64,000 nucleotides of DNA from a virus. Positions 11,921 to 36,460 of the stretch are shown here, piece by piece; position 1 is the first letter of the stretch, and each line of letters starts with the position of its first letter. Below the pieces are notes generated by a model, which saw only the letters and a list, made by a program, of their open reading frames with translations, was not told where the DNA came from and did not search any database. The stretch lies in IMG/VR virus record IMGVR_UViG_3300037461_001096, positions 64,001 to 128,000 of that record; one strand, written 5' to 3'. The translations under genes were made by a program, and so were the position numbers.

Positions 11921-11924
11921 ATTG

Positions 11925-13688
11925 TCATTTGTTCAGCAGATCACACCATCTCCATCTGGTTTTTCCATAATCCCAGATTTTTGTATATCCCTGGTTTCTT
12001 CTAAAACTGTTTTCAGTTTCATAACATCCTTCCGGCTTTCTAAGTGATGACTTGTGGTGTCTAACTCTATTTTTCACCCAATAGTAATCAGGACGTATTT
12101 GACCATCGTTACGAAATCCCATTAGCTCATAAACACGACCCGTAAACAGCCTGTTATCCGAAAATGTTATTATCGACTGTACGCCATTTGATTTCGTAAA
12201 CAATTGCAAAATTTTAGACCAAATACCATGTACATGATATTTGGGGTTCATAGCCATTCTTGAGATTTCATATTCGCCAAAGCATTTCTGGCGCACAGGC
12301 TTACGGAATGAAATACACCCTATCAACTCTTCGGCGTGAAAAACTCCGTAGTGAATCGAAGATGGTGCACCGCCAATATAATGGAATTGTTCATAAAACT
12401 CGAAGGCATACTTGGCAGAAAGTACTTTAATAACACAATTGTTTGGACGAATTTTCTTAGGTTTATTGCAGCCAAGTCTATTGGCTATGATTGACTTCAT
12501 TATATCGCATTTCTTTTCCCATTCATCTTCAAACAAAACGATTATGTTATATCCGTTTTCTTTCGCCAATGCGAATTTTCTGGCATCCCTTTGACGGGAT
12601 AAGACCCCGGAGTGCCATCTCAAACCATTGAGTTCTATAAGCAATTTTTTGTCTGGAATGGCTATATCGTACGGGACACCATTCACCAAAAATTCACATA
12701 TAACATTTTCCCCGATAGATTTTATGAACTCTGCCAACTGTCGATTCCACCTGGGAATCGTGTCATTCGTACACCCACATGTGAGTGAAATACCACGTTT
12801 TATGGAGTGAAGGTACGGACGATATGTGTTTGAACAAGCTGGACAGATTGCCTTAAATGAGTCCGTTGTGTTGAAAACCACTTCTAATGGAACAACACCT
12901 CCAGGAGGAAAATCAGCTTTTGAAGCCGGGCATTTTATACCACGGATCTTCTCTTTGTTTTCTTCATACCATAAATCAACCAGAGTATGACACAGCCCAC
13001 ACTTTGTGGTAACGCGTCTAGTTATACTACCTATTTGAATGTTCTTAACGACGCCACAACGACACTTAAAAGGAAGTTTTTTCTTGCTTCCTGGTGACAC
13101 AGTCGCTGATTCGCCATAATAAGTGAAATCAAAATACTCTTGACCGTGTTCGAGAAAGATTTCGTTGCATCTCCCACAAGTTTTGGCTAGTCCAGTAGTA
13201 ACTGTTCTTATCGATCTCTCACTAGACTTACCGCATTTACACTGAAACAATAGTTTATTCGGAGAATTTGCAAACACTTCAACAGTTTGACCTAGATACT
13301 TAAATCCAAAATATTCGTCGCCGTGTTTCAACGAGATTTTTGAACATTTACCACAGCTTCTGATTTTACCATTGAAAACGAGTTTTGCCTGGACTGTCTT
13401 ATCATTTCCACACGAACATCTGAACTGAATTAATTTATTACTACCAGCACTTATCTTGATATCCTGTCCGAGGTATGCCAGACTTCCGTACGTGTCTTTG
13501 TGTTTTAAAGTCACGTCATTGCAATGACCACATGTTTTCTGGCCATTTGATATATTGGCCACTTTTGCGGTAAACACGTGACCACACATACACTTAAATA
13601 ACAGTTTTTTAGAACTCTTCGGATTTATTTCTATCGGATCTCCAACATAGGAGAAGTTTCCATACGTTATACTATGAGTCAAACGCAC
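11925..13688 (-). CDS. Zn-ribbon repeats + Vsr/DUF559-type endonuclease + Mom-like GNAT domain (free-standing homing-endonuclease-like gene)
   Basis: Four ~59-aa CxCG...CGxC repeats plus a variant copy; nuclease motif YDIAIP...IELNGLRWHS...RDARK; GNAT motifs HYIG...EISRM...TFSDNRLFTGRVY. Likely GTG start at 13688 (the ORF track starts at 13763). Confidence 0.8.
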   Translation of the reverse strand: MRLTHSITYGNFSYVGDPIEINPKSSKKLLFKCMCGHVFTAKVANISNGQKTCGHCNDVTLKHKDTYGSLAYLGQDIKISAGSNKLIQFRCSCGNDKTVQAKLVFNGKIRSCGKCSKISLKHGDEYFGFKYLGQTVEVFANSPNKLLFQCKCGKSSERSIRTVTTGLAKTCGRCNEIFLEHGQEYFDFTYYGESATVSPGSKKKLPFKCRCGVVKNIQIGSITRRVTTKCGLCHTLVDLWYEENKEKIRGIKCPASKADFPPGGVVPLEVVFNTTDSFKAICPACSNTYRPYLHSIKRGISLTCGCTNDTIPRWNRQLAEFIKSIGENVICEFLVNGVPYDIAIPDKKLLIELNGLRWHSGVLSRQRDARKFALAKENGYNIIVLFEDEWEKKCDIMKSIIANRLGCNKPKKIRPNNCVIKVLSAKYAFEFYEQFHYIGGAPSSIHYGVFHAEELIGCISFRKPVRQKCFGEYEISRMAMNPKYHVHGIWSKILQLFTKSNGVQSIITFSDNRLFTGRVYELMGFRNDGQIRPDYYWVKNRVRHHKSSLRKPEGCYETENSFRRNQGYTKIWDYGKTRWRWCDLLNK

Positions 13689-13698
13689 GAGATCTCTT

Positions 13699-16600
13699 CT
13701 AGATAAATAGGTCTTGTGTTTGAAGAGTGGAAATGAAATTTGACGCTGACACAATGCTATCATTGTTTATATCGATGAGCATGGATTCAATAGCTCTCAT
13801 GCGTTTTGACATCCAAAAAATCTTGCCGATCATACGCTCGAATATGGGATTGTCTCTGTTTTTCAGATTACCCATGTAAAATTTCCCCTCCTTGCGGAGT
13901 TGATCATTTAGATAAGTCCAAGTAATGACATCAGCGCTTTTCTCACAGTTGTGGGAAAAGAAACCACCAGTCGAGTACTCATGATCGCCGGTCACTTCCA
14001 GGTCGAAAACTCGTCCGCTCCCAAATTTTTCAATGGAAGCAATTCGATGCGGTCTCATTTTGGTGGCCAGTGTCCGCAATTCTGAAACATCATTTCCGCC
14101 GACGTCATTTATGGTATTTAGTGTTTCCATGAAGGCATTGTGTGGAACATGATCATTGTCACTGTTCAAAACACGGTTGGTTTTCCTCGTGAACTGTCCT
14201 TGGTGCTTCGCACACACAGCACGTAGCGTTGATCCAACAGGCCATGATGTCGTGTTTTCAGCCTTGGTCAATGCTGAAAACTTATATACAAACTCCATCA
14301 GTTTTTCTTGTTTGCTTGGCTCAGTAAATCCAACTAACCTAGCAAACAACTCTCTCGAGTTGTGCGATCTGATTCTGAGACATGCTTCATCGGATTTTTT
14401 ACTATTTAAGGAGGCTCGTTTGTCATAAACGGTGGTTTCAATTCCAAGCTTGGCGAACAACAATTGCAGTTGCAACAGGGTGGGTTTCATTTCGTTTCTT
14501 AAACCAATATTCACAATTCCTTGTGAACTCACACACCCATAAGTATCCATGATGCCTTGAATGAAAGTAATTACCATCGACCTTGGCGCTTGCAGAATGA
14601 CCAAGGGAATGCCTGGTCGGCGGTTCACACTGCGCACAAACACCCCATCGCCTGCATGCGCACCCATCAGGTATGCAAGCTGTTCTGTAAGCTTGGACTG
14701 TGTAGAGAAAGAATGCTCGCCATGCTGGACTTCCAATGGCGGAAGGTCTGGTGATTCAATTGGGAATTGGTTGTTATCGAAATCTGTCAGAATCATGTCT
14801 CCCAGTTGCATATCACTTACCTGTGCCCAAACAATTTTGCCATTCACCAGAGACCTGAATCTGTGCGATCCTGTAACAACCGCTTCTTGACCTCTATTTG
14901 TTTTGAGTTTGAAAACTTCCCTAACTCCATTGTCGAAGCAATTCAAGACCTCTTTCCACCCTGTGGAACTCCACACTCGGTGGACCCCTGGCTTTATCCG
15001 CTCTATCGGCACAAGGCCAAGCTGCGTTTGCACAAGCGTTCCTTCAATGTTACATTCATTGGCGTAGCTTATGGCGGCCATATCATAACGACCGTCATTT
15101 TTGTCGGCCCTAAGTTTACCCTGCCGGTTCATTTGAAATAGAGCAAGGACTGGCACACCTCGACCTCTGGCAAAATTTAGAGCCATCAGACGTCCATCAC
15201 GCACAACAGCATTCTGGGTTGTCACAAAGTCTGATGTGCGATGGCGAGGTTTCACTAGCCCCAAGTGGTCAATAACCACTCCGTCGCAGCCCCATTTATT
15301 ATGAAACATTTCAGCTTTGCGTCGGATCTCTAATATTCCGGCTTCATCTGGAGGACGCCATACGAAAAGCTTTCCCTTGGACGTTGCTTTAAAATCTTGT
15401 GCTACCTTCTTTAAACGTTCTTTATCCCTTGGGGAGAGCTCACCATCCCGCACTCTCCTATAATCAAGGCCAGTATATCTACGTTCTGGAGGAATTCCAA
15501 TTCGTTCATCCTCCTTCCACCATTCTGTCACAAATTTTCCATGTGATGAATGGATAACATATAGCTGACGTCGAAGTTGCTTGTATGGCATTTCAAGAAT
15601 GGCATAAAAAATGTTTTTTCCATACACATATGCGTTATTATATGCATAGTTCAAAGCCAGGCTAGTGTTGTGAGTGATAATGTCGTCAACCACGAAAGAA
15701 TGATGTTCTGGCACAGACATATCATATGTCATTTGTCTGCCCTTAGAAGCTATCGTACGGATTCTTTCCCAGCAGATGTCATTGTCAGCAGCGTTGCATG
15801 ACTGCTGAGACACTGCAGGATGCATACCGGGCAAGGACGAGTGTGGGTTGTCATCCACAGAGTGTAGGCTGTTTGCTATTGAATCTGACTCATTTTGCTC
15901 GATTATATACGGTGTTAAAGTCAAAAACCTTCTTTTAGACTGTGTCTCAACTATTTTGACAATCCAAACTGGACAAGATTTCCCGTTATACTTAATCTTA
16001 TGACTTGTGATTGTCGATTTGATGCCTAAACGTAAAAGCAATGACTGTATGTCCACACATAGACCATGCGATGCAGAATAATATTTTAAACCATTACGTT
16101 TATTCAAACTGACACGAGACCATAGAGCTCTGAGTAACAATATCACCTGATGTTCTGGTAATCCAAAGAATTCATCTGGTACACGCCTAAGACATCCTCC
16201 AGTTATCTCCACTTCCATATCCGTAAATTGCTCATTTGGATCCGGGACTAACATACTGCATGGTACGGCCACCAAATCACCCGGAGACAATTTGCCCAGG
16301 TATTTCCACCCATCAGGCGTCCAGAAACCATGGTTATTTGTGACTGTTGTAGCACGCCCCGATTCCAGTTTCACTTCATACACGTGTCTCACGCCATTTT
16401 GTAATACATGAGACACACGCGCCTGAACAAGTTTTGGTTCAGCACCTTCCTTATATAATGCTGTAACGACAGGCATATCACCGGATTCAAACACCTCATC
16501 CATACGTCTACGCCGTTTAGCAGCATGATCGTAAATAATGGAAGATCCCGCTACGCATTTGAGCTCGCCTGCGAAAGCTGTGTGAATCCAGTATTCACCC

Positions 16601-17214
16601 TGACGGTGCCCCCGGCAAACCGCATCAACAGGTTCAAGACCGAATAGATTCCGACCCGCGTATTTGTCCGTCTTTTCTACAGTGTCGTATTCTTGAAGAA
16701 TTTCTTCGGCATCGTCTGTCACTACACCTTCAAGTTTTTCACCCCCTTCAACTCTGGTGAAATCATGAAGTTTATCATAGACAAACCCAACAGCGTCTGT
16801 TATACCTTTTAAGACCTTCTTTCCATTCACAGGTTTATCAAGATTTCGTCCATGTTCAGCAACAACCGAGGCGTCGCGCATGAGAAGCATGAAATTTTTT
16901 ACTTGTTGTTTATCCTCCTCGGCTCTGACAATGGCAAGATAATTTGTCCCAATAAATGGCTGGGCATTCTTAATCTCGTCAAGCCGTGTCACGGCTTCTA
17001 TGTTATCTTCTTTTTCGAAGAATTCACGGACGATCCCGAAATCTGGCGGGGCCGCCATTTGCCCATAAAATTTTCGAATATACTCCCAAATCGCTTTATC
17101 CTCAACAGAGGAAAAATCAATAACATGTTCTTGAAGTTTGTTCCAATTCTTCAAACAGTCTTCAGCATCTGGAACAGTTCCGACTTGCATTAAGCTTCTC
17201 AGTATTCGATCCAA
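13699..17214 (-). CDS. dnaB: DnaB-like replicative helicase containing two inteins
   Basis: After removing the inteins: Walker A AFAGELK|TS, ILEM, Walker B VVIDHLGL, LFQMNRQG, ANE|CEKSAD and LKNRD. The extein is about 505 aa. Confidence 0.9.
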   Translation of the reverse strand: MDRILRSLMQVGTVPDAEDCLKNWNKLQEHVIDFSSVEDKAIWEYIRKFYGQMAAPPDFGIVREFFEKEDNIEAVTRLDEIKNAQPFIGTNYLAIVRAEEDKQQVKNFMLLMRDASVVAEHGRNLDKPVNGKKVLKGITDAVGFVYDKLHDFTRVEGGEKLEGVVTDDAEEILQEYDTVEKTDKYAGRNLFGLEPVDAVCRGHRQGEYWIHTAFAGELKCVAGSSIIYDHAAKRRRRMDEVFESGDMPVVTALYKEGAEPKLVQARVSHVLQNGVRHVYEVKLESGRATTVTNNHGFWTPDGWKYLGKLSPGDLVAVPCSMLVPDPNEQFTDMEVEITGGCLRRVPDEFFGLPEHQVILLLRALWSRVSLNKRNGLKYYSASHGLCVDIQSLLLRLGIKSTITSHKIKYNGKSCPVWIVKIVETQSKRRFLTLTPYIIEQNESDSIANSLHSVDDNPHSSLPGMHPAVSQQSCNAADNDICWERIRTIASKGRQMTYDMSVPEHHSFVVDDIITHNTSLALNYAYNNAYVYGKNIFYAILEMPYKQLRRQLYVIHSSHGKFVTEWWKEDERIGIPPERRYTGLDYRRVRDGELSPRDKERLKKVAQDFKATSKGKLFVWRPPDEAGILEIRRKAEMFHNKWGCDGVVIDHLGLVKPRHRTSDFVTTQNAVVRDGRLMALNFARGRGVPVLALFQMNRQGKLRADKNDGRYDMAAISYANECNIEGTLVQTQLGLVPIERIKPGVHRVWSSTGWKEVLNCFDNGVREVFKLKTNRGQEAVVTGSHRFRSLVNGKIVWAQVSDMQLGDMILTDFDNNQFPIESPDLPPLEVQHGEHSFSTQSKLTEQLAYLMGAHAGDGVFVRSVNRRPGIPLVILQAPRSMVITFIQGIMDTYGCVSSQGIVNIGLRNEMKPTLLQLQLLFAKLGIETTVYDKRASLNSKKSDEACLRIRSHNSRELFARLVGFTEPSKQEKLMEFVYKFSALTKAENTTSWPVGSTLRAVCAKHQGQFTRKTNRVLNSDNDHVPHNAFMETLNTINDVGGNDVSELRTLATKMRPHRIASIEKFGSGRVFDLEVTGDHEYSTGGFFSHNCEKSADVITWTYLNDQLRKEGKFYMGNLKNRDNPIFERMIGKIFWMSKRMRAIESMLIDINNDSIVSASNFISTLQTQDLFI
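13948..15054 (-). mobile_element. intein 2 (369 aa) in helicase motif H4 region, with LAGLIDADG remnants
   Basis: Begins CNIEGT; block B TGSHRF; LAYLMGAHAGDG and FIQGIMDTYG; ends FDLEVTGDHEYSTGGFFSHN followed by +1 Cys. Confidence 0.92.
15667..16557 (-). mobile_element. intein 1 (297 aa) in the helicase Walker A, with degenerate LAGLIDADG endonuclease
   Basis: Begins CVAGSS; block B TNNHGF; ends YDMSVPEHHSFVVDDIITHN followed by +1 Thr. Confidence 0.92.
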
Positions 17215-17222
17215 ATTATCCC

Positions 17223-18026
17223 CTATTCTCTACCGAAATTTTTCTTTTTATTTATGCCTGACCCGTATATTGATAAGTTGAAATTATCGTCATTATCAAC
17301 GGTAGGTAGATCTTTTGGTTTAGGTTTTATCCGCTTTTTTGTGGAATCAGGTGTGGTAATAGGGCTTTCCGGTTCTGACTGACTAGACCCAACGGGGGCG
17401 AGGTCAAATAAACCAGTTGTTTGACCTCGTGGTAAAATTGGGGATATCCGAATTTTTGGGAAAATTTCGATTAGGTCCCACAGGGATTCTGAATAAGCTG
17501 GACTGTTAGATATGAAAGGTCTGTCCATATCAGACACAAGCCAAGTCGGTTTGTCCTGATCTGAACGAATAACCAGTGCTTCTTCAAGTGCGCCAGCGGC
17601 TGCCTTATTTGGCCTAGTTATAGCATTTAGACGAATTACAGCCAACCCGGGGGGCCCTATGAAGTCCCCAACATTCTCAAAAGAGACTTCGTTTTCACTC
17701 CTACTCTTTTTGGACATATTCCCAACATAAGCATGCAGAATTTCATTATCAGAAGTCACACGCACAAACAGATTCACATGACGAAGCATAACGGCCTTCA
17801 CAATTGCCTTCATATCCGCCCACATGGCCAGTATAAACAAAGACTTGCAAGTCTGGTCATGAAGCTTCGGTGTCAAATGCTCAGGACGAAGCTCGGCAAT
17901 TCTTATATAGGGAGGCATAGATGCAGCCCGACGCCGCAAAAGAGCACAAATACATTCATATAGCTTGCCGTCTTTTTCCAGAATCCCAGATCCATTGCAT
18001 TTGCACCCTTCCATATTAAATTTCAA
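17223..18026 (-). CDS. DnaC/IstB-like helicase-loader homolog lacking Walker motifs
   Basis: N-terminal CxCxGxG...ECIC zinc site; C-terminal L..AL..R....KPTWLVSD resembles the DnaC sensor region; lies directly upstream of the helicase. Confidence 0.5.
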   Translation of the reverse strand: MKFNMEGCKCNGSGILEKDGKLYECICALLRRRAASMPPYIRIAELRPEHLTPKLHDQTCKSLFILAMWADMKAIVKAVMLRHVNLFVRVTSDNEILHAYVGNMSKKSRSENEVSFENVGDFIGPPGLAVIRLNAITRPNKAAAGALEEALVIRSDQDKPTWLVSDMDRPFISNSPAYSESLWDLIEIFPKIRISPILPRGQTTGLFDLAPVGSSQSEPESPITTPDSTKKRIKPKPKDLPTVDNDDNFNLSIYGSGINKKKNFGRE

Positions 18027-20121
18027 TCTCTGACAAATCTACAGTTGCGGCTTTCGCTTCGAATGGGTCTTCCTGGGGCTCGGAAGGGGCTTTCCCGATG
18101 CTTTTTACCTTCGAAGCTGGTTTAGCCTTCGCTGAAAAATTTGGAAGCTTCGAGGGGTTTTTTTGACCTTCCTTTATCATAGATACTAACTCCATGGCGT
18201 CATCTTCGGGTACAAATTCAAGCCCTCCTTTTAGCCCCTCCCCGGCTACTTTGTCAGCTAATGCCTTCTTAGATTTGAGCTTCTTAATAACATAGTGATC
18301 TATGGTCTTACGGCCGTCTTTTCTCACCCCAACCAAATGTGTAGCAACTGTCATTGAGTGTTTACTTCCAATGCGGATCATACGACCAATGAGCTGCAAA
18401 TAAGTCCCCCATGACCATGGAGAATCCAATAGAACAAAATGCTCAGCTGCTTGTAGATTAATAGACTCCGATCCGGCTTCCGTAATTAGAATAACATCTA
18501 CTTCAGACTTTGGATCTTGAAAAATCTTCTTAGCCTTCTCTCGATCTGAGGATTGCTTTTCTTTTCCAGTAATCCTGACACACCGGATGCTTCTATCCTT
18601 CAAAGCCTGCTCAGTCAGAGAGATCATGCGCTCAAAACGGGAGAACACAATCACCTTTGCTCCATCGAGCTCATTTTCTAGCATCTCAAGCAGTGTTTGT
18701 ATCTTGGGTGACTTTCCTTCCCACGGTTTCCCGTCACTATCATTCAAAAGGTTTGGCGCATCCACTGCCTCCTGGACAAAAGTCATGGCGCCTAAGACAG
18801 CTGCTGGGGACTCGTCTGGATCAGCGTCTTTGGCAAGCAAACCGGCTTCAGTCAAATCATATAACTCTTCCTGCAAATCTGTCAATTCACATTGAAGTTC
18901 TCGAGTAACTAAACGTGGGAGTTCAGTGGCTACGTCGTATTTTCGTCGCGAAAGATAAAACGGCTCTATATTTCGTACGAATTTATCAAGATTCTTATAT
19001 CCAACTACAATCGGAACAGAACGGCCGCCCCCGATACGTTGAAGCTTAGTAATACAAAATTCATTTTGAAACCATGTAACTCTCGGAAATAACCCGGGAA
19101 CGACTATACGAAAAATGGAGAAGAACTCCATAAGACGATTCTTCACTGGAGTTGCCGTTAGGCCATACACGCGTTCACAACATTTAGCAAGGTCTGCCGC
19201 AGCAGTATGTATTTTGCCCCTGTGGTTCTTAACCACGTGAGCCTCGTCCATAACGAGCATGAGCTTGGCTTCTGGATGCTGAGCTTGAAAAGCGCGAATA
19301 TGACCAATAATACCCATAGAGATAACTGTGGGGTGTACAAGTTCTTCAAGTCTAGCAGCCTCTTTTTTCCAGATGGCTTCTGTACTAAGCAGCTTTGTCA
19401 TGCGCTCAACTTGTTGTTCATCTTTATCATTCCATCCATTAGGACAGGTTGGTCTTGATTTTATACCTATTGCAGTGGATGTTTTTGCATAGTCCCAAAT
19501 CTCAAAGGGTCTGGTATTGAACCAAGATTCAAAATCTGTATATGCTCCTGAGATTGCTGTCTTTGCTTCCTTCAAAATTTTGCGCAGCCTGGAAAGCTCT
19601 TTTTTATCTGCTACAGACGCCTTGTGATCAGATTTTCGAATCACAGATTCCTGCGCATCTTTTAGCAAGGCGTCGTATGTCATAATTAGGAGATGTTTTG
19701 CTGACCCATAACTTTCAAAAAATTTCGTATAAGTTTCATCTCGTTCATATGGCCCACCGTCTACCGTAACAGCCTCCATATCTTGAAGGAATTTTTTAGT
19801 CTCTGCTTCCCACTGATATAAAGAAGATTTCTTTGTTATAACAATTGGTACGTACTCGGGCTCTTTTAGCCACACATAACCTATTGCACCCAAAACTTCT
19901 AGCGTTTTACCCAGTCCAGTGTCGTCTGAGACTACCATGCGTGGCGACATCAGCAGGTTCATGATGCCGATTTTTTGATAATTTCTAACATTGACCGGAA
20001 TTTCGACACCGTCATCGTCTATGTACTTGCTCTTCAAGAACGGGGAAGGCTTTAGGTTGATGTCCTTCATACTGCGTAATTTACGCAGTTCTTCCAGCAT
20101 TTTAACTTCATTTGGCGTCAT
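18016..20121 (-). CDS. SNF2-family helicase
   Basis: Q-motif RNYQ, DDTGLGKT, MDEAHVVKN, LTATPVKN, VIVFSRF, AGSESINLQ and QLIGRMIRIG. Confidence 0.93.
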   Translation of the reverse strand: MTPNEVKMLEELRKLRSMKDINLKPSPFLKSKYIDDDGVEIPVNVRNYQKIGIMNLLMSPRMVVSDDTGLGKTLEVLGAIGYVWLKEPEYVPIVITKKSSLYQWEAETKKFLQDMEAVTVDGGPYERDETYTKFFESYGSAKHLLIMTYDALLKDAQESVIRKSDHKASVADKKELSRLRKILKEAKTAISGAYTDFESWFNTRPFEIWDYAKTSTAIGIKSRPTCPNGWNDKDEQQVERMTKLLSTEAIWKKEAARLEELVHPTVISMGIIGHIRAFQAQHPEAKLMLVMDEAHVVKNHRGKIHTAAADLAKCCERVYGLTATPVKNRLMEFFSIFRIVVPGLFPRVTWFQNEFCITKLQRIGGGRSVPIVVGYKNLDKFVRNIEPFYLSRRKYDVATELPRLVTRELQCELTDLQEELYDLTEAGLLAKDADPDESPAAVLGAMTFVQEAVDAPNLLNDSDGKPWEGKSPKIQTLLEMLENELDGAKVIVFSRFERMISLTEQALKDRSIRCVRITGKEKQSSDREKAKKIFQDPKSEVDVILITEAGSESINLQAAEHFVLLDSPWSWGTYLQLIGRMIRIGSKHSMTVATHLVGVRKDGRKTIDHYVIKKLKSKKALADKVAGEGLKGGLEFVPEDDAMELVSMIKEGQKNPSKLPNFSAKAKPASKVKSIGKAPSEPQEDPFEAKAATVDLSEIEI

Positions 20122-20219
20122 ATTAGTCTTTGGTTGTATTTTATGAACGCAAAACCAAACATAAGGTCAAGCATCAAATGATAATTAAACATGAGGCATA
20201 GACAGCCCCTGGGGAACAT

Positions 20220-20441: not shown

Positions 20442-20541
20442 GGATCTATCCCTTGTTACACTAGGCTTTGCTTATTCCCGTGCAGTATCGTAACAGACCT
20501 GACCGTTTTATGCCAGGATCCCGTGTTGAACGTATTAATGC

Positions 20542-21647: not shown

Positions 21648-21657
21648 CTTAACAACC

Positions 21658-29300: not shown

Positions 29301-31079
29301 ATCTGTTGTCATTCCTTCAAAGCGGAGTAAAACAGCATCCGGGTCTTCGCTTGGCAAAACAAACCTGACTTGGTCTGCATCTGTTAATGGAAGGCCGGCC
29401 TGAAAGTCGGATAGTTTGATAGTAATTTCATCTCCGTTCCACCACCAGTCAACTCCGCCTTGCTGCCTATTACCTCCACCAGGTGTTTTGGTAGCTGCTG
29501 TCCAGCTGACAGTTGTGTTATACGGAGTAACGCCAATGGATAGGAGGTCACCGACGGTGCCAGCGTCCGATGGGATTCTCGCAACCGCTGAATAACGTTC
29601 TGTTACGACCGCGTCAGAAAAAGCTCTTCGGTTCCCGTTTGGTGCATCAAGGCGAGACAGTCCACCAACGAAAGTGGTTGAATCAGTAATTCTGTCTCCA
29701 TACAAAACAATCGATCCAGAAGAATTTGTTGACCCATAACGCTTCCAAGTAGTACGCAGGTTTCCTTTCAAAAGCTCAACCAAATTGGTCTTAAGCAATG
29801 TCCCATAGTCATAACTATCCAAGACAACATGTCGCATGTCGAGGATGTCAGTTAACGCGACCTGATCAGCAAATAAGCCGTCCGGCCTTGTTGTAACAAG
29901 AGTCAATGAGGCCCCCATTTTGTGATCTCGAATCACAGTTTGAAGGGCTCCGCGACTAATGTTTACAACATATGCAGTCGGACTTGTCTGAACAATGCTG
30001 TCAACCTTAATGACCTCATCATCGATCTTAAAATACGCCTCACCAAAGTTTGTCATAGTGGTGAGAACTGTCCCAACAATGCTTGTCAGAGTGAACGAAA
30101 AATCGGTGGCGAGCAGATCTGATGGTAGAGATACGCCTGTTGTATAAATAGTCACCCCGTTTCTATCAGAAGCTTGGCTATTTCTATTGAAGGCTCCAGA
30201 AAGATTCCCAATGTCAGAAAACCCAGCGGAGTTTCGCCGGAATACCGTGCAAAGTGGAATTGCGTACACATATCCGTCTACAGTTCCAAATGTAGACGGA
30301 TCCCCCGTCCCAGCCCTCCACAACCCTGGGTCTCCAAGAGTTTGGCGCATGTTCTGAAATGCTGTAGAACTTGGAGACGATAGCATGCCTTGGGCAAAAA
30401 CAAGGGTTGGGTCAAATCCCTCCGGATTCTGCGCCATGTTAACATCTGCAACGACTCGAATCCTATATTGGATTTGAACACGTCCAGTTGTCTCATAATT
30501 AAGATCTGGATCAACAATGCCGTCCGGCAAAAATGAGAAACCACCCTCAACGTTCCCAAAGCGCCACACATATCCGCGCTGGGGTTTGCCTGGAGCGACA
30601 GCCGAAGTAGGGTCTGAATCAATTCTAGCAAGCCATACCTCAAGAAACACAAATTCAGCGCGGTTACCACCTGTAGATGTGTTCGGAGGATTAAGAGCAA
30701 TTTTATTCCATGTATCAACATCATTTGGGACAAGGGGAGGGCTTCCAGTGCGTGTTCCAGCCACCGGGACCATCCACCCGTTTACGACTGCCCAAGCAAG
30801 ATTTCTAATCTCAGTTGATGAATTTCGTCCGAAATAAAACTGATTTGAATATGAAGCATCAGTTTTGAAATCCCCATATGGATTTGATAAATCCGCTAAC
30901 CAACCAGACGGATACCTCGACCTCATGGTTTCGGCCCGAGCCTCGAGGTCCATAAGAGAGATTAAATTTAATTCAGCATCACAAGGTGGCTTTGTCTTTC
31001 GAAAGACAACGGTCGCAAACTGGCGATCCCTATCGTCAATATATCGTGAAACGCCTGGTCCAAGAGGATTCGTCGGCAT
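26343..31079 (-). CDS. large virion structural (tail/baseplate) protein
   Basis: 1578 aa, beta-rich. The N-terminal ~400 aa are paralogous to 31829..34393. C-terminal NGSKLQYGVDYTV module. Confidence 0.7.
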   Translation of the reverse strand: MPTNPLGPGVSRYIDDRDRQFATVVFRKTKPPCDAELNLISLMDLEARAETMRSRYPSGWLADLSNPYGDFKTDASYSNQFYFGRNSSTEIRNLAWAVVNGWMVPVAGTRTGSPPLVPNDVDTWNKIALNPPNTSTGGNRAEFVFLEVWLARIDSDPTSAVAPGKPQRGYVWRFGNVEGGFSFLPDGIVDPDLNYETTGRVQIQYRIRVVADVNMAQNPEGFDPTLVFAQGMLSSPSSTAFQNMRQTLGDPGLWRAGTGDPSTFGTVDGYVYAIPLCTVFRRNSAGFSDIGNLSGAFNRNSQASDRNGVTIYTTGVSLPSDLLATDFSFTLTSIVGTVLTTMTNFGEAYFKIDDEVIKVDSIVQTSPTAYVVNISRGALQTVIRDHKMGASLTLVTTRPDGLFADQVALTDILDMRHVVLDSYDYGTLLKTNLVELLKGNLRTTWKRYGSTNSSGSIVLYGDRITDSTTFVGGLSRLDAPNGNRRAFSDAVVTERYSAVARIPSDAGTVGDLLSIGVTPYNTTVSWTAATKTPGGGNRQQGGVDWWWNGDEITIKLSDFQAGLPLTDADQVRFVLPSEDPDAVLLRFEGMTTDPNGGMLLNITDPGPPPVQGPDIINPDTAPTVSYPTMLNGLVEYDLIGNHIMKHGQGIDVSINSSGDLVIKFNSGTDSTKLTEFDDAMYGFTSPSTDLAIATVLHIQFAVVYGAGRGLSHKPKHIHAVNWLGSPSNSSKVMTRPGLPTMNRMIPTYLGDSPLVQTGRNRTLAITSEVMIDPGSKTVYVAPYRNMLTPKLLVRSGYRLNWYGTQLSPSFQGPMPKLSQDGLTTVYSVTDPLSLFYSQRASGTANYADTRYVELPMEWMPRPGLHHIPIIPVTNGIFPSGLNFLLMSKEGPFAATNTSDWNRNLVCYPSGAPGFYIVTPVPSETYGQASGSMSIFGQKYINSTVSSASGGSFKGIQFPPFLAPARITGVYLRDPITDPVVPSPASPFDNNRIYVGGVGTSINLLRDDCDAATVLLSVDANGDLTFVLSADALDFSKAPAGTTFDNSNFLVECTLFAFDRGFLQTNARLLICKMISGGSISVDVNNFTTSSDNTVGVIVPAPMSLNYVNNEVTVYYSRMPYQGDVFGTQGSHSDDLQRIGPLSVGEAQAIFNHPLGPPNTLTLKNKAGFEILTSLPFVTSLGTGRLSGSTPIPMLSTVSNPNGVPDYAGTLVDLDRRFSLNRVGYEDWATPKFPVTAASVASRPAVKRGAMSEAYDRDLHPEFAGCVSNLPLGIYFRDKDFIGKTLYQTRSASNAALIPLGTLSFQPFQSAQDPSVAGIPRWEGTEFVCGNASNITGNGGEALIRVDGTGSTTDVYNFKTTRGGAAYSVTSPWAGSGIVAKLTKAKPNFEVGAVMSGVAYLVRSQPEVVNSSEVHPGHELQMFIVTHASPSYFRGTEVSHSASGVNEGYTAADRFRIWGRPLEKRRSGVDMDIVPTAKPMFVNDVWDDPIFFGSSDPNLGSFRQETITISSDGQTLFPDALSGSPLDPATVQAWLNGSKLQYGVDYTVGGPPLNRDITYLTSFPSLITSDVLEVFYALK

Positions 31080-31178
31080 TCGTACAGCTCCGTATTAGTC
31101 AAACGCAATAACCACCAAAAGGTCGCATAAGTGGCCTAGTTGAACCATACCCGAAAATTTAACAGCCAGACAGAAGGG

Positions 31179-31832
31179 TTATTCTCCCGTCTTAAACATC
31201 ATCATCCAATCTGACAAGTAGACTGTGTATGAAGAACCGTTATAAAATCCAACAACGAAATCATCCGGTAACGCCAGTGTTCTAAGTTCATCCGGAACAA
31301 CATCTTCGATGAGCACAAGAGCGTCGGTATACAAACTAACTTGAACATTTAACAGAGAAGGATCGATAAAATTTTGTCCTCCTTCATCGAAATTATAAAA
31401 TCTACAACTGTAATCAATGTTATTGTAGCTTGTTTCCTTAGAGCCATAAATAAACGTATTGAAGTGAAAAACGTATTTGGAAACATTAGAGACTGAATGA
31501 ACTTGTGTGTATAATTCCCCTCCAGGACGGATTGATGTGGTCTTTGCAACCCCTCCACATGTGATCAAAGTCGAGTTAACAGTATCACAGTCACTTCCAT
31601 CAATAAATTCTTCAGCAACCGGGGAGGTATCTATATATGGTTGATATAATAACTTGAGCGCTTCGAATTTAGCGTTAATGAATTGATTAATGGTAGACCC
31701 ATTCGGAAGAATAGATTCCGGAATGTCGATTGGACAGTCACATACAATAATGTCTGAAGGTATCGGAAAGACAAGCTTGGAATTTGCGACACGCCCGATG
31801 ATTGTTCCATCTGATTTGGCCAGAAACTTCAT
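31179..31832 (-). CDS. hypothetical virion-region protein
   Basis: 217-aa ORF; ATGA overlap with the upstream gene. Confidence 0.65.
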   Translation of the reverse strand: MKFLAKSDGTIIGRVANSKLVFPIPSDIIVCDCPIDIPESILPNGSTINQFINAKFEALKLLYQPYIDTSPVAEEFIDGSDCDTVNSTLITCGGVAKTTSIRPGGELYTQVHSVSNVSKYVFHFNTFIYGSKETSYNNIDYSCRFYNFDEGGQNFIDPSLLNVQVSLYTDALVLIEDVVPDELRTLALPDDFVVGFYNGSSYTVYLSDWMMMFKTGE

Positions 31833-34393
31833 TGAGTGAGTCTCCTGGAATTTATAAGATTTCCACGTGTCCTATAAATTGACACACATCCTGAACTTGA
31901 TGTTGGTAAAACCGAAATTGACGACAACGAATCCGTCCCATAGGTTGTAAACAATGCAAGGACCAAAGTTCCTGGTCGGATTTGATTTGTATCCGTTGAC
32001 ACAACTTCCATAAGTGCTGGGTAAACAGCACGATGAGGAAAATCTGAACCCATGTCTTCAATACCTCTAAACTCCACCACGTCGTTTACACCAATCCGGG
32101 GCCAGAAGTACCTTCCATCACTGTCAACAACTGTGTCCCCAACATTCCGAAGTAAAACTTCACTATTTTTCAGATAGGTAAATTTTGAGGGAACATAAGC
32201 AAAACCGCTGTTAACCGGTGCAGAGTCTGGCATGATTACACCAACAGGACTGCTTCCAACACTCCCCTCTCCATCACCATTAGCCATTGGAATTTGACTA
32301 ATTCCGTTTAAATCCCAGTCAGGAGTGTCAGGACTTGCCGACGATCCTGTCACCATTAGCATATGCGGAGATATGGCTCTAAGTCGAAGTTTCATTTGGT
32401 AAGTTCCGCTGGGAACTTCCACTGACTGATTGGCTCTAGCAGTATAAAAGACGTCATACCAAGTTCCGGGTCCAGCTGGTAGGGGAGGGGACGGAATAAG
32501 CTGAGTGTATGTAACATTTACGACTGTGTTTGCCGGAACTGTATGAGACAGTTGAATTTTTGTATATGTAGTATTGATAGTGTAGTTTGTTGTTCCATAT
32601 GATGGATTAATTCCATCATCTATTGTAACTGAACCGGACAGTCGATTAGGCAACATGACATAGTCACCAGTCGATGAGGCAAACACGTTGTCTGACTCCG
32701 ATTCACAAAGAAGAGATAGAGACAACTCCCTATGGAACCACTGTATCGACCATAGAGAACTATCCAAAAGAAGTCGTGATAAATCTGGGAGAGCCTCAAC
32801 ATAAGCCGGATCAATCCATGCATCCAACGATTCAGGCATCCATACCTGTCCGTCTTCCACGGGTGTTCTCTCGAGCCCACAGTCCCCTGGGTACCCGATC
32901 GCTAATTCAACATAGGCATACACATCTCCGGACGCGGATATGTCTGTGAAATTTATTGTGACTTCATCAGAACTCAAGTCGATAACATCTGCATAAATTA
33001 CTCCATTCGTTGGGTCAAGCCCATCCACTTCTTGGGTTGAATTTACCGTCAGTCTAAGTTTTCTGACTTCTAGAAATTTAGTCCCTGAAGGAACTAATGA
33101 TGATAAATCGACTGAGGATCCATACCAAACAATAGGCATGTCATCCATGCCTATAACTACTGTTGAATAAGGGGACATGACCTGCTTTTTGCAAACAATT
33201 GTCTCGGTCACAGCGCGATCAGAAAACAAACGCCTGACGCCGTCTGGTGTTTGACGTCCTGACGGAGCTAGCGTATTGTGAACAAATACTGAGGTTCCGC
33301 CGCAATTGCTTGGCGAAAGAATTTCTGATTGAGTCGCTAGCTGGTTTTGAATCAGATAATTGAAATTTCGAGTAAGAGCTTCTTGAAAATTACTGGTCGC
33401 GGCTTTACGTAAATCTTTCACATCTTTATCAACGATTTGGTCAGCAAATAGCCCATCAGGCCTGTCAGATGTTCCGACTGCTATTAAGACTCCACCGTTT
33501 AAATTTATGCTTCTATCAAATCCATCACTGTTTCGTCTATATACCGCGCACAATGGGATAGCATACACATAACCGTCAACTGTTCCAAGGTCAGAGGCCG
33601 ACGTAGAATCACCGTCTCCAGCTCTCCATAAACCCGGATCCCCAGTGACTCTCTCGTATGGGTATGACGTAGAATCACCGTCAACATCGCTACTATTCAA
33701 GTATGGAACTGTGTTGGCCATAACGCCATCTGGCGCTTCTGGATAAGTTCCTTCTATACTTCCCCATGAAATTACCCTGTACCTATATTGGATCTGAACT
33801 CGAGCTTGAGTTTCATCAAGATACGTCGGATCGATTAAGTCGTCAACAAGATTCCTGTTTCCAACGGAGTCTGGGGCTTTTGCGTTACCATGCCGTAGAA
33901 TTTGTCCGGATACGCTTTTGTTATCCCCAGACCCAGCTGTAACCAAAGCCCTCCAAACTTCGAGTATCACAAGTTCTGAATCTCTACCGGTTGAAGGAGG
34001 CCCAGATAGCTGGATTTTATTCCAACCATTAGTTTCAGTGTCAGAATATTCAAATCTGACACTCCATCCATTTACAACCAAATCGGATGCGGCCATCATG
34101 AACGCATTTTCATATCCAGGACTTATGGAGAACATGAAGTCTGGGCCGACAGCCGAATACTCGTAAAAATCCCCACTTAAAAAACCAGACGGGACTGTTT
34201 GACGCACATGCTGGCCGAGGCCATAAGCTGAAGTAATCTCATTCTGAAGATTTAACTCCCAGTCATTAACTGGTTTATTGAACTGGAATACGACTCCTTC
34301 CCAAGAATGATCTTCAGCCGTGTAAGCACCGGCTCCGGCAACAATGGTCTGTGGGTTTTGGCTTACACCTGGGCCAAGCTGTTTATATGCCAT
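31829..34393 (-). CDS. virion structural protein, paralog of 26343..31079
   Basis: Shares LGPGVS, ELNL, VNGW, LEVW, RVQIQYR, DPGLWRAG.GD, GTVDGYVYAIPLC.V.RRNS and RPDGLFADQ. Confidence 0.75.
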   Translation of the reverse strand: MAYKQLGPGVSQNPQTIVAGAGAYTAEDHSWEGVVFQFNKPVNDWELNLQNEITSAYGLGQHVRQTVPSGFLSGDFYEYSAVGPDFMFSISPGYENAFMMAASDLVVNGWSVRFEYSDTETNGWNKIQLSGPPSTGRDSELVILEVWRALVTAGSGDNKSVSGQILRHGNAKAPDSVGNRNLVDDLIDPTYLDETQARVQIQYRYRVISWGSIEGTYPEAPDGVMANTVPYLNSSDVDGDSTSYPYERVTGDPGLWRAGDGDSTSASDLGTVDGYVYAIPLCAVYRRNSDGFDRSINLNGGVLIAVGTSDRPDGLFADQIVDKDVKDLRKAATSNFQEALTRNFNYLIQNQLATQSEILSPSNCGGTSVFVHNTLAPSGRQTPDGVRRLFSDRAVTETIVCKKQVMSPYSTVVIGMDDMPIVWYGSSVDLSSLVPSGTKFLEVRKLRLTVNSTQEVDGLDPTNGVIYADVIDLSSDEVTINFTDISASGDVYAYVELAIGYPGDCGLERTPVEDGQVWMPESLDAWIDPAYVEALPDLSRLLLDSSLWSIQWFHRELSLSLLCESESDNVFASSTGDYVMLPNRLSGSVTIDDGINPSYGTTNYTINTTYTKIQLSHTVPANTVVNVTYTQLIPSPPLPAGPGTWYDVFYTARANQSVEVPSGTYQMKLRLRAISPHMLMVTGSSASPDTPDWDLNGISQIPMANGDGEGSVGSSPVGVIMPDSAPVNSGFAYVPSKFTYLKNSEVLLRNVGDTVVDSDGRYFWPRIGVNDVVEFRGIEDMGSDFPHRAVYPALMEVVSTDTNQIRPGTLVLALFTTYGTDSLSSISVLPTSSSGCVSIYRTRGNLINSRRLTQ

Positions 34394-34549
34394 TTCTCAG
34401 ATCGATCCAATAAGAGGGTTGTGGATTGTTTCAACAATACCGGTGTAAATTAACATATGCAACAAATAAATTTGGAGATAATAAGATGGACCTGACCTGT
34501 GCTGCTAACATTGATGAATGCCTAATAAGATTTCATATTTTCCAAACGT

Positions 34550-36460
34550 CTACGCCTGAGTTATTTGGTTATATTTACGTTTAGATGGACTTGCAAATAA
34601 AACAAATTTCTTTTTTTCTTTACCCCAAACTTTAGTATAATTATTTTCCTCTGCGTATTGACGTTCAGTTCTTCCCATTTTTACAGCGTGATTATATAAA
34701 GTTTTCTTGTGTAAAACAAACCCTTGATCGTTGACATAGCAATAATCAGGTTGCACAGTTCCGATACATAGCCAATTTGAGACTGAGTATATAGTTCCGA
34801 TATGACCATATGTCATATCGGCAAATGATACAAAAGCTTTTATGTTAGTAAAGCTAGATGATGCCAGCTTCACCGCTCTACAAATAAACCACGAAGCAAG
34901 ATTCTTTTTATGGAAATTTGGATGAATACAAAATCTGTCTAGCTCAAGCAATGAGTTTGGTTCCATTTCCATAGAAGTAGCCACTTCTTTACGTATAATT
35001 GGAGTAAACTTACATACAGCAATGAGTTCATTGTCCAAAAACGCGCCATATGAAATTTTATTGTGTCTACCAAACCCAGCATAATGGTAAGCATTTAGAA
35101 AATTTGCAGCCTCTTTTGATTCCAATGATCGAATGCTGAGTTGAGAAAAAGAAAATGAAACTGGTTCAATAACTGGTATATCACCAGTTATAAAATTTTT
35201 TATCTTATCTGCTACACATTCCGGATTTATGAAATCACGTTCAAGTAAGTATAACAACCTTGCCTGTGGTTTAGACCTTTCTAGATAGGCAAGTTTAGCC
35301 GAATCACGAGATTGTCTACCCGGTAAAGAGTGCCAGTACTCACCTTGACATTCTATGAATATATCTAAATCTGGTAAAACAAAATCAAATATCCATGGAC
35401 CAGTTGGAACTTGACTTTGATAATTCAATTGCATGGCACTCAATATTGTAGCGGTGATTTTCTCTAAAGATGATAAACGACGAATTTGCATAGAACGGTG
35501 TATGCCCATTTTATGCTGATATTTAGGGTCAAGCCACATTTCTTTGCTTTGACATGAACGTGTGTGCCTATATGCTGGATCATGCCACAATTTACAAATT
35601 GATTCAATCATACGGCGTTTGTACTCTGCATCTTGCCATCTTGCTTTAGCTGCAGCAGATGCTTTCGCCCTGTACTCAGGTTGCTTCCACTTTTCAGTAA
35701 TTATGGCCGCCAGTTGTTGGCGATATTCAGGGCTTGCCCACATCTTTTCATATTTGGCTCTAAAATCTGGGTTCAGCCACAGTTTACTTTGTGCTAACTT
35801 GCTCGCTTGTCGACGTTCTGGTGTCCAGGTTTCACGTTGTTTAATTGACTGGTTTAACCTGTAAGCCGGGTCTAGCCATTTGGCTGTCATTGCAGCAGAA
35901 ATTGCGGACCGGCGTGCTGGGTCAGCCATAACAGTAGTTTGAATAGCTGCTGCTTTGAGTCGAAATTCTGGTGTTTTGAAATCTGCTTGAGCTTGTCTAA
36001 ACTCAGGCTTACGCCAAAGTTCAAGTTTGGCTTCTCTTTGTTTCTCTGCGTATTGAGGATCTTCCCATAGTTGTTTACTAGTTTTAGACAGCTGCTCCCG
36101 CCTGGCGGGAGTTTGTGCTCGCAAACATCTCTCAATATGTTTGCGAGCAAATTCTGTATCCTTCCATAAATTCTTGCGAATGGTAATCTGCTGTTCACGA
36201 AATTGTTCATTTTGCCACATGGACTTATAAAATGAACGTTTTTCTTCAGTCCACGACCGTTTAACAACGCATGAATTACATATAACAACACCTTGCTTTC
36301 GTAAGCGTGCCTTCAGGTTGATTATTTTTATATGTAATTCACAGCCACAGTCTACACATGTAGACACCACCATTGACGCATTGTTTATTGGCTGTCCGTA
36401 TCTATTAGTAGTTTTAGTTAAGTCCAATGAAGGTAGTAATATACTAATATCAGATCGCAT
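34550..36460 (-). CDS. WxxPExR helical repeats + Vsr/DUF559-type endonuclease + Mom-like GNAT domain (free-standing)
   Basis: N-terminal CxxC..CxxC; about 16 short W-x-[DN]-P-x-[YF]-R repeats; FDFVLP...IECQGEYWHS...RDSAK; HYAG...ELDRF...SFADMTYGHIGTIYSVSNW. Confidence 0.8.
   Translation of the reverse strand: MRSDISILLPSLDLTKTTNRYGQPINNASMVVSTCVDCGCELHIKIINLKARLRKQGVVICNSCVVKRSWTEEKRSFYKSMWQNEQFREQQITIRKNLWKDTEFARKHIERCLRAQTPARREQLSKTSKQLWEDPQYAEKQREAKLELWRKPEFRQAQADFKTPEFRLKAAAIQTTVMADPARRSAISAAMTAKWLDPAYRLNQSIKQRETWTPERRQASKLAQSKLWLNPDFRAKYEKMWASPEYRQQLAAIITEKWKQPEYRAKASAAAKARWQDAEYKRRMIESICKLWHDPAYRHTRSCQSKEMWLDPKYQHKMGIHRSMQIRRLSSLEKITATILSAMQLNYQSQVPTGPWIFDFVLPDLDIFIECQGEYWHSLPGRQSRDSAKLAYLERSKPQARLLYLLERDFINPECVADKIKNFITGDIPVIEPVSFSFSQLSIRSLESKEAANFLNAYHYAGFGRHNKISYGAFLDNELIAVCKFTPIIRKEVATSMEMEPNSLLELDRFCIHPNFHKKNLASWFICRAVKLASSSFTNIKAFVSFADMTYGHIGTIYSVSNWLCIGTVQPDYCYVNDQGFVLHKKTLYNHAVKMGRTERQYAEENNYTKVWGKEKKKFVLFASPSKRKYNQITQA

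Follow-up and report, generated by a model that had tools for sequence, protein, structure and literature searches.

Two genes of a jumbo phage, here called P0001 and P0002, each encode a nuclease and a Mom-like GNAT domain in one polypeptide, behind a long N-terminal repeat array. The first-pass annotation presented them as two fusion genes whose N-terminal arrays are swapped on a shared C-terminal core, and as a candidate modular restriction/modification-type element. They raise the question of what kind of element these genes are, and what the GNAT domain does for them.

The two genes and their loci

The DNA analysed is a 139-kb (139,067-bp) jumbo-phage fragment, the record being rated 33% complete. 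Coordinates are those of the window, a 64-kb stretch of this record, in which no tRNA genes were found. Both ORFs lie between intact ORFs, as first described.

11925..13763, minus strand: P0001, gene assigned to the Hef-like (phrog_559) homing endonucleases; 612-aa ORF with an alternative GTG start at 13688
13686..13696, minus strand: upstream member of a pair of exact 11-bp direct repeats, starting 2 nt past the helicase stop codon; it contains the GTG start candidate of P0001
11908..11918, minus strand: downstream copy of the same exact 11-bp direct repeat, 6 nt past the P0001 stop codon
34550..36460, minus strand: P0002, 636 aa; zinc ribbon, W-PEYR helical array, Vsr/EDxHD nuclease and Mom-family GNAT

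The longest P0001 ORF (612 aa, ATG at 13763) begins inside the helicase ORF (13699-17214), whose end it overlaps. The GTG at 13688, from which the gene was first taken to run, lies 10 nt past the helicase stop codon; either codon is a possible start, and the public gene call is 554 aa long. The repeat flanking P0001 occurs at these two places and nowhere else in the 139,067-bp record. One gene caller gives P0002 as a 556-aa form, but the 636-aa form is the real one, because orthologues align from residue 5-17 onwards.

The shared two-domain C-terminal core of the earlier reading is borne out by BLASTP (25% identity over 255 aa, E 5e-18), and both proteins pass the 27.1-bit cut-off of the Pfam Mom family (PF25680). 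The idea of a swapped pair is not, because the Mom parts are only 24-25% identical and belong to different subclades, and the two genes are members of a set of at least eight in the 139-kb fragment. In three related complete jumbo phages, with genomes of 242-427 kb, each genome has 5-8 matches to Pfam Mom and 8-16 protein matches.

The genes are patchily present at their loci, as had been anticipated. A P0002 orthologue follows the p220 gene in five of six related loci and is absent from the closest one; a P0001-like gene stands beside the helicase in none of three relatives. Patchy presence and spread in many copies are indirect evidence of homing, and the sharing of the P0002 array type with GIY-YIG enzymes, described below, also fits a selfish element. 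Distant relatives have P0002 in the same gene order at 42-47% identity, which to judge from the sequences speaks for a long stay of the gene and against a recent invasion. Four public runs, in which cover was thin, showed no empty-site allele.

Family, nuclease and N-terminal arrays

P0001 and P0002 very probably belong to the EDxHD (Vsr-fold) family, as free-standing homing endonuclease genes of its Hef-like branch. P0001 matches phrog_559 with an E-value of 7.1e-72, residues 49-607 aligning to positions 21-600 of the 607-position profile. This profile is named 'Hef-like homing endonuclease', as hundreds of phage records are annotated, and some annotators label such genes 'nuclease/acetyltransferase'. 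In tblastn searches the genes so named in Campylobacter phages have 26-27% identity over 90-95% of P0001, and these phages have 8-11 P0001-like places per genome. Hef-type enzymes have been placed in the EDxHD family (Taylor et al. 2011, PMC3239194). The AR9 gene for RNA polymerase beta' has an intron that contains a 494-aa homologue, and in a T-even phage a 522-aa homologue separates nrdA from nrdB, which is the reported position of hef. The family also includes enzymes that contain no GNAT domain at all, such as AR9 g147 (302 aa). In place of the proposed restriction/modification-type element, the two genes are ordinary Hef-like/EDxHD homing endonucleases, a family that has an intron-encoded member.

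Hef of phage U5 and the Hef-like proteins (PHROG 559, 3339) have the same architecture as P0001, a zinc-ribbon array followed by a Vsr-type nuclease and a C-terminal GNAT-like domain. They are found in Campylobacter, Acinetobacter, Proteus, Dickeya LIMEstone, Klebsiella RaK2 and Bacillus AR9/PBS1 phages and, like the present genes, are multi-copy, free-standing and adjoin conserved genes. P0002 differs from them in having a W-PEYR helical array in place of the zinc-ribbon array, and a Mom domain of another subclade that is nearer to canonical Mom (81 vs 31 bits). Two of the paralogues outside the window differ in having tandem HNH domains in place of the Vsr domain.

12489..12746, minus strand: P0001 nuclease, residues 340-425, Vsr/EDxHD type, with D366, E377, H384, D393 and E412-D413-E414
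35186..35473, minus strand: P0002 nuclease, residues 330-425, Vsr/EDxHD type, with D359, E370, H377, D386, K389 and E407

The Vsr-type nuclease and Mom-family GNAT first proposed are supported by sequence and profile for both genes and by fold for P0002. The Pfam nuclease models MTES_1575 and DUF559 remain below their cut-offs in both proteins. The P0002 family profile matches the catalytic domain of I-Bth0305I, the EDxHD prototype (PDB 3R3P), with an E-value of 2.1e-13, and P0001 matches it as a single sequence only, at 0.0046. The folds were compared for P0002, using an AlphaFold model of its core (pLDDT 92.3). This model aligns to 3r3p over 92 of 98 residues (Z 13.9, rmsd 2.1 Å) and to Vsr (1cw0) over 97 residues (Z 12.3, rmsd 1.9). 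In the alignment with 3r3p, P0002 D359, H377 and D386 fall on the positions of its D196A and H213A mutations and on its KD; they are conserved in 121, 119 and 121 of 124 sequences. In 73 sequences of the P0001 type, D366, E377 and H384 are each conserved in 71, D393 in 59, and E412/D413/E414 in 70-72. I-Bth0305I shares with the present genes a DNA-binding region, putative in P0001 and P0002, N-terminal to the nuclease; it differs, as described in PMC3239194, in being an intron-encoded protein of 266 aa with NUMOD/HTH motifs, the nuclease at its end and no GNAT.

The arrays precede the nuclease in both proteins (residues 36-331 in P0001, 35-326 in P0002).

12990..13658, minus strand: P0001 zinc-ribbon array, residues 36-258; four tandem 58-59-aa CxCG...CGxC units of the DUF4379 treble-clef type
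12771..12845, minus strand: P0001 fifth, degenerate zinc ribbon, residues 307-331, CPAC...CGC
36269..36358, minus strand: P0002 single N-terminal zinc ribbon, residues 35-64, CxxC...CxxC
35483..36256, minus strand: P0002 W-PEYR array, residues 69-326; about 16 units of W-x-x-P-E-[YF]-R, forming helices of 12-16 residues each

The P0001 units start at residues 36, 94, 153 and 212, with a period of 58-59 aa, and match Pfam PF14311 with 40.9 bits (cut-off 24.5). The arrays are unrelated, as had been described, with four clean 59-aa ribbons and one degenerate ribbon in P0001 set against one zinc ribbon and roughly 16 W-helices in P0002. C35, C38, C61 and C64 of the P0002 ribbon are invariant in 42 aligned sequences. 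The number of W-motifs depends on how they are counted, with seven found by a strict regular expression, ten by a loose one and 16 by eye when degenerate units are included. AlphaFold predicts the P0002 array as 17 consecutive helices over residues 62-326 (pLDDT 94.9, pTM 0.48), for which Foldseek returned no PDB fold match. P0002 has no match to Pfam NUMOD3 (PF07460) at E-values up to 1. Its only repeat match, to GerD (32.3 bits), was read as a repeat artefact.

The W-PEYR array is also found on GIY-YIG homing endonucleases (GIY-YIG+NUMOD3) in the related phage G003, where its units alternate with true NUMOD3 motifs; it may therefore work in a NUMOD-like manner without being a member of NUMOD3. 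The expectation that N-terminal arrays vary on a conserved core is supported, the N-terminus ranging from 83 to 577 aa in 125 tabulated proteins and the zinc-ribbon units from 0 to 7 in 73 proteins of group A, the Hef type. We infer that the arrays of P0001 and P0002 bind DNA.

The Mom-family domain

11943..12446, minus strand: P0001 Mom-family GNAT, group A (Hef type), residues 440-607; PF25680, 31.2 bits
34568..35161, minus strand: P0002 Mom-family GNAT, group B, residues 434-631; PF25680, 81.1 bits

The Mom part of P0001 alone matches 214 phage records. P0002 matches phage Mu Mom (8bv8) with an E-value of 9.5e-7, and its family profile with 2.8e-9. The AlphaFold comparison with Mom suggested in the first pass gives the same answer. 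Mu Mom is the top Foldseek match of the P0002 Mom part (E 3.5e-12, next GNAT 4e-7) and the best match of the P0002 model by VIA-align (Z 16.8 with 165 aligned residues, next GNAT 14.3). The latter alignment spans 106..305 of the model on 20..232 of the 8bv8 chain, running through the Mom-specific insertion, where model residues 244-293 form two helices with flanking strands. The motifs HY.G, EL.R, SFAD...G..Y, PDY and HK, noted at the outset, are all present.

The activity of Mu Mom depends on H58, Y59, R111, S124, D149, R151 and Y159 (PMC13219725). All seven are kept in P0001 and six in P0002, where R151 is replaced by Thr. In group B (124 sequences) H58, Y59 and R111 are present in all, S124 in 119 (with Thr in the other five), and D149 and Y159 in 123 each. 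In group A (73 sequences) the counts are H 73, Y 67, R111 73, D149 69, R151 70 and Y159 72; the S124 equivalent, Ser516, is kept in 59 of 73, a count based on a small alignment, the larger one having misaligned S124. Because the pocket residues are under strong purifying selection, the Mom GNAT looks like a working enzyme, and as far as conservation can tell the domain is probably catalytically competent in P0001 and P0002. The Mu enzyme modifies N6 of adenine in double-stranded DNA with glycine, for which Gly-tRNAGly and not acyl-CoA is the donor (PMC13219725), so that the absence of acyl-CoA binding, earlier named as a refutation, is outdated as a test.

The domain also differs from Mu Mom, which makes up a whole protein of about 240 aa, dimerises through W48 and modifies many sites genome-wide against host restriction (PMC13219725). 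Here it is always C-terminal in a nuclease fusion of 540-640 aa, all 23 Pfam Mom matches in four phages lying in open frames of 487-659 aa and none in a Mom-sized gene. Neither W48 nor W181 is kept in P0001 or P0002, W48 being Lys in both.

In one alternative the Mom domain is catalytically dead and acts as a DNA-binding, base-flipping or dimerisation module, its residues being kept for DNA binding. The R151 position, essential in Mu Mom (PMC13219725), is Thr in 113 of the 124 sequences of the P0002 clade, and the chemistry there may therefore differ or be lost. In the T-even homologue D149 is replaced by Asn and Y59 by Leu, so that in some lineages the domain is dispensable or inactive, and the intron-encoded AR9 copy retains it without a need for self-protection. 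Mu Mom binds double-stranded DNA through an HTH-like insertion (PMC13219725), and the corresponding segment is conserved here and contains a nearly invariant HKK motif. Against this, six of the seven pocket residues are 96-100% conserved in group B at an overall identity of 37-57%, which is tighter than is typical of a binding surface and more typical of an active site. The conserved set includes the Ser and Asp whose alanine mutants kill Mu Mom (PMC13219725), and group A keeps R151. We therefore regard a dead domain as unlikely.

Proposed homing and possible protection of the carrier genome

The fusion of a REase-fold nuclease to Mom in jumbo phages has been described by Iyer, Anantharaman, Krishnan, Burroughs and Aravind (2021, Viruses 13:63; PMC7824862) with the same cut-and-protect logic, and the present genes share this feature. 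P0001 and P0002 are thus new members of an already known gene type, of which both the fusion design and the cut-and-protect idea have been published. Iyer et al. treat the fusions as restriction-like, directed against host or superinfecting DNA. The terms 'homing endonuclease', 'Vsr' and 'treble clef' do not occur in their text, and its passages on the fusions connect them neither with homing endonucleases of the Hef-like/EDxHD kind nor with arrays that read DNA.

If the genes were weapons of this kind (PMC7824862) and not homing elements, Mom would modify adenine throughout the phage genome and the fused nuclease would degrade unmodified host or superinfecting phage DNA. The retained catalytic residues of both domains and the lack of a stand-alone Mom gene in the four phages would suit such a system. 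The long, variable arrays, with four to five zinc ribbons or about 16 helices, imply long and rare sites, which are a poor fit to a general attack on host DNA, and among characterised nucleases the nearest one is an enzyme of homing with a footprint of about 60 bp (PMC3239194). Homologues occur in introns and in classic homing positions, and the presence of eight diverged paralogues in 139 kb, all with arrays of their own, is better explained by many separate selfish elements than by a single defence system. This explanation is decidedly unlikely.

It is very improbable that the GNAT is active on another substrate (cleaved DNA ends, tRNA or protein), biasing repair to recombination or disabling a host factor; such GNATs include tRNA-acetylating toxins, Mom substrates are not predictable from structure (both PMC13219725), and altered chemistry is hinted at by the P0002-clade motif D-x-T-x-G-H, in which 122 of 124 sequences have His where Mu Mom has R154. 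Against this, Mom itself is the closest match in sequence and in structure, the latter by both Z-score and Foldseek E-value, and a domain that is constantly fused to nucleases and DNA-reading arrays probably has DNA as its substrate.

The best overall explanation, and a probable one, is that P0001 and P0002 are Hef-like homing endonucleases, with an array-targeted Mom GNAT that may shield the carrier genome. The N-terminal array, made of zinc ribbons in P0001 and of one ribbon and about 16 W-PEYR helices in P0002, would read a long DNA site. The Vsr-type domain, with its D/E/H/D residues intact, would by analogy with its family cut the genome of a related phage that is without the gene, and recombinational repair would then copy the gene into the cut genome. 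Judging from its position, the most likely target of P0001 would be the neighbouring dnaB-like helicase gene. In the preferred reading the array would also bring the Mom GNAT to the site of the nuclease, where it may acylate adenine, probably from aminoacyl-tRNA as in Mu Mom, and the acylated adenine would keep the nuclease from cutting the genome that carries it.

The protective role of the Mom domain, a hypothesis already in print, is possible rather than probable when taken by itself. The insertion of an intron already destroys the target of the element that it carries. The AR9 intron copy retains the Mom domain despite this, which weakens self-protection as the reason for the domain.

Campylobacter phages carry about ten such genes each, and a passage on their DNA in PMC8713573 mentions guanine replacements only. 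This was counted against the adenine-shielding explanation.

A bolder proposal is a single-chain cut-and-protect element, in which an exchangeable array directs two activities to one long site, cutting by the nuclease and modification of adenine by an active, aminoacyl-tRNA-dependent enzyme, and in which W-PEYR is a new modular DNA-reading code common to Vsr, GIY-YIG and Mom modules. We consider this unlikely. If it is true, the target of a free-standing homing endonuclease could be a sequence that is still present, and unaltered, in the endonuclease's own genome, and immunity of the carrier would come from site-specific momylation and not from mutation of the target.

Domain architecture of the two fusion genes

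P0001 and P0002 are the two genes in the window that encode a nuclease fused to a Mom-family GNAT domain. The 139,067-bp record that carries them is rated 33% complete by CheckV. Both ORFs lie on the minus strand, in the same direction as the neighbouring genes.

Positions of the two genes (window coordinates)
11925-13763, minus strand: P0001, 612 aa, comes after a dnaB-like helicase ORF of 1171 aa
34550-36460, minus strand: P0002, 636 aa, between a 220-aa gene (p220; phrog_5417, unknown function) and an 854-aa gene

The first-pass annotation had started P0001 at 13688. A GTG codon is present there, 10 nt past the helicase stop codon, but the longest ORF begins at an upstream ATG at 13763. Megablast with the two genes as queries returned no match from a collection of 50,697 phage records, which includes no close sequenced relative of this phage. 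Within the window, Rfam at gathering thresholds and ARAGORN identified no group I introns or tRNAs around either gene.

The two proteins share a two-domain core (25% identity over 255 residues, E 5e-18) that ends in a Mom-family GNAT domain, as originally proposed; Pfam Mom scores 31.2 bits in P0001 and 81.1 bits in P0002, with a cut-off of 27.1. The Pfam nuclease models MTES_1575 and DUF559 fall below their own cut-offs in both proteins. A profile of 75 P0002-type proteins matches the catalytic domain of I-Bth0305I (3r3p) at E 2.1e-13 and Mu Mom (8bv8) at E 2.8e-9. For the AlphaFold model of P0002 residues 330-636 (pLDDT 92.3, pTM 0.76), Foldseek ranks Mu Mom first (E 3.5e-12), with the next GNAT at 4e-7. 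In an all-against-representatives search the same model matches 8bv8 with a Z-score of 16.8 (165 residues aligned), 3r3p with a Z-score of 13.9 (rmsd 2.1, 92/98 aligned) and E. coli Vsr (1cw0) with a Z-score of 12.3. Fold comparison was made for P0002; the P0001 nuclease matches 3r3p by sequence at E 0.0046.

The N-terminal arrays are as first described. The four to five zinc ribbons of P0001 comprise four clean units of 58-59 aa and a degenerate fifth (PF14311, 40.9 bits). P0002 begins with one zinc ribbon followed by a run of W-x-x-P-E-[YF]-R units, the W-PEYR array; the count of about 16 helices is reproduced by eye (16), and pattern searches find 7 under strict and 10 under loose criteria. 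The AlphaFold model of residues 1-330 (pLDDT 94.9, pTM 0.48) contains 17 consecutive helices of 8-16 residues, most of 12-16, with the helix breaks at the W..P positions. A Foldseek search of the PDB with this predicted array gave 0 matches at E <= 0.001, which does not show a new fold, since long helical repeats are hard to match. Pfam matches to GerD, Med15 and STI1 on the repeat arrays were read as low-complexity or repeat artefacts.

A known family with exchangeable parts

P0001 aligns from end to end with phrog_559 (E 7.1e-72). With P0001 as query, tblastn found matches in 401 phage records, 38 of which have a single place covering at least 80% of the protein. Searched part by part, the GNAT domain is found in 214 phage records and the nuclease in 277. 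The best matches are Campylobacter phage genes annotated as 'Hef-like homing endonuclease', at 8-11 places per genome; other matches are annotated as 'homing endonuclease EDxHD' or 'putative nuclease/acetyltransferase protein'. The EDxHD family has been described as taking in Hef-type enzymes (Taylor et al. 2011, PMC3239194). One T-even phage encodes a 522-aa homologue between nrdA and nrdB, where hef is placed by a review and by the title of Sandegren et al. 2005. We read P0001 and P0002 as homing endonuclease genes; for the window itself the outcome is chiefly annotation, adding two members of this known family in a phage clade rich in such genes. Their long arrays suggest long, rare targets rather than general restriction.

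Our literature search on Hef-like genes and acetyltransferases in phage found no report, and the sole relevant work found on Mom or GNAT domains fused to homing or Vsr endonucleases is Iyer 2021; the supplements of PMC13219725, PMC7261163, PMC7824862 and PMC11878797 may already list such fusions.

A phmmer scan across all ORFs of the record identified eight nuclease-Mom genes in two groups, P0001 and P0002 included.

Nuclease-Mom genes of the record (genome coordinates)
34398, 55485, 59860, 75925: group A (P0001-like), four genes
27372: group B copy, zinc ribbons, DUF559 and Mom
48207-49835 (minus strand) and 51039-52742 (plus strand): group B copies L002 and L003, outside the window, two HNH domains and Mom
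98550: group B copy, P0002

In L002 and L003 tandem HNH/EndoVII-type domains take the place of Vsr. The N-terminus of one of them also matches a 'Lar-like restriction alleviation' PHROG (phrog_5558, E 2.1e-15).

The proposal of one core with swapped arrays does not describe P0001 and P0002. Across its C-terminal 195 residues, P0002 shares 45-49% identity with the HNH-linked copies but just 31% with the other Vsr-linked group B copy and 24-25% with group A. Relative to the Mom lineage, the nuclease partner has thus changed.

The arrays also vary across the wider family. The N-terminus ranges from 83 to 577 aa among 125 tabulated proteins (120 listed homologues of the P0002 core, one of them the window's own gene call, and five paralogues of the record), and the zinc-ribbon count ranges from 0 to 7 among 73 P0001-type proteins. 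Compared with P0002, eight homologues (P0008-P0013, P0015 and P0017) show 35-41% identity in the array and 53-57% in the core. In G003, one of three related jumbo-phage records (G001-G003), the W-PEYR array is joined to catalytic domains of the GIY-YIG type and to NUMOD3 motifs, Pfam-confirmed for those proteins tested. Five G003 ORFs (L028, L029, L031, L033 and L034) are GIY-YIG homing endonucleases of 275-443 aa, with W-x-x-P-E-[YF]-R units interleaved with NUMOD3.

Occupied and unoccupied sites

The three related records comprise two complete genomes with terminal repeats (362 and 427 kb) and a third of 242 kb. They contain 8, 5 and 5 Pfam Mom matches respectively, all in open frames of 487-659 aa; their P0002 matches number 16, 8 and 14. 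Four of the 18 Mom matches are interrupted by in-frame TAG or TGA stops, which could reflect copies in decay or matches extending beyond the end of the gene.

An orthologue of P0002 (42-47% identity over nearly the full length) directly follows the p220 homologue at five of six related loci. At the closest p220 locus (L007 in G001, p220 76% identical) it is missing and two small unrelated ORFs are found instead; G001 has a P0002-like gene elsewhere. These ORFs are on the opposite strand at L007 8675-9557, and the 140-aa one looks, by eye, like a putative nucleoside diphosphate kinase.

In all three relatives the helicase lacks a P0001-like neighbour. P0001 is flanked by an exact 11-bp direct repeat; the upstream copy (13686-13696) begins 2 nt past the helicase stop and the downstream copy (11908-11918) 6 nt past the P0001 stop. 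The record contains no further copy, and the first 8 bases form a palindrome. The repeat may be a scar left by insertion, or a microhomology junction. Bracketing repeats of at least 9 bp are absent from the other seven nuclease-Mom genes. No empty site alignable at the nucleotide level was found for P0001 in IMG/VR or at the helicase loci of G001-G003, since the small protein downstream of P0001 has no relatives in IMG/VR and the helicase-downstream genes of the three relatives are unrelated to those in the window.

The helicase ORF (window 13699-17214, minus strand) encodes 1171 aa, whereas the open frames in the relatives measure 496, 526 and 879 aa, and its DnaB PHROG match is confined to residues 517-700. 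We take the approximately 650 extra residues to be two putative intein-like insertions, which would make the helicase gene a hotspot for selfish elements; the helicase genes of G002 and G003 are regarded as intein-free.

Contigs from four public runs of other studies (two metatranscriptome and two DNA; wetland and sediment samples) were placed on window 10800-14800 in 30 bins. All 22 placed contigs are at least 99% alike to the window, with no joint skipping P0001 and no variant letters, cover being thin in X3, X5 and X6. The RNA library X2 has depth in 30/30 bins, and a single X2 contig (11796-12278) spans the P0001 stop and the downstream 11-bp repeat. X3, X5 and X6 cover 10, 4 and 5 of the 30 bins and are uninformative on the absence of a gene-less allele. 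The contigs show presence in RNA libraries, not proof of transcription.

State and possible role of the Mom domain

In Mu Mom, the residues reported to matter are H58, Y59, R111, S124, D149, R151 and Y159 (PMC13219725). All seven are found in P0001 and six in P0002, which has Thr at R151.

Residues at Mu Mom pocket positions
Group A (n=73): H 73, Y 67, R111 73, D149 69, R151 70, Y159 72; serine equated with S124 59, an equivalence taken from a small alignment, the large one misplacing S124
Group B (n=124): H 124, Y 124, R111 124, S124 119 (and 5 Thr), D149 123, Y159 123; R151 to Thr 113; Mu R154 to His 122

This conservation is consistent with an active pocket, whose chemistry may be altered in group B. 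Counting against activity, the R151A mutant of Mu Mom is reported to be dead (PMC13219725) and the 522-aa T-even homologue has Asn in place of D149. Acyl-CoA binding, earlier suggested as a test of this domain, is not the appropriate assay, the relevant chemistry reported for Mu Mom being aminoacyl-tRNA transfer (PMC13219725).

Modification by the Mom domain may shield the carrier genome from its own nuclease. Such self-protection is the most parsimonious proposal and has been published before; Iyer et al. (PMC7824862) predicted that the phage is shielded by momylation and that its nuclease is directed at other DNA. It is weakened because an intron-encoded copy in phage AR9 keeps the domain: g146 (494 aa, 'Hef-like'), located within an intron in the gene for virion RNA polymerase beta', has the C-terminal domain. 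The adjacent g147 (302 aa, 'group I intron VSR') is without it. A consistent absence of GNAT from intron-encoded EDxHD enzymes, which would back self-protection, is ruled out by g146.

Hef-like genes are among the commonest selfish genes of large phages, occurring in hundreds of records with up to about ten copies per genome, and almost all carry a Mom-related domain. If this domain is inert, an enzyme fold would here have been taken over for DNA binding. Active, site-directed modification of adenine by the domain would account for how free-standing homing endonucleases spare their own genome, and would make the Mom fusion a naturally programmable DNA-modifying enzyme.
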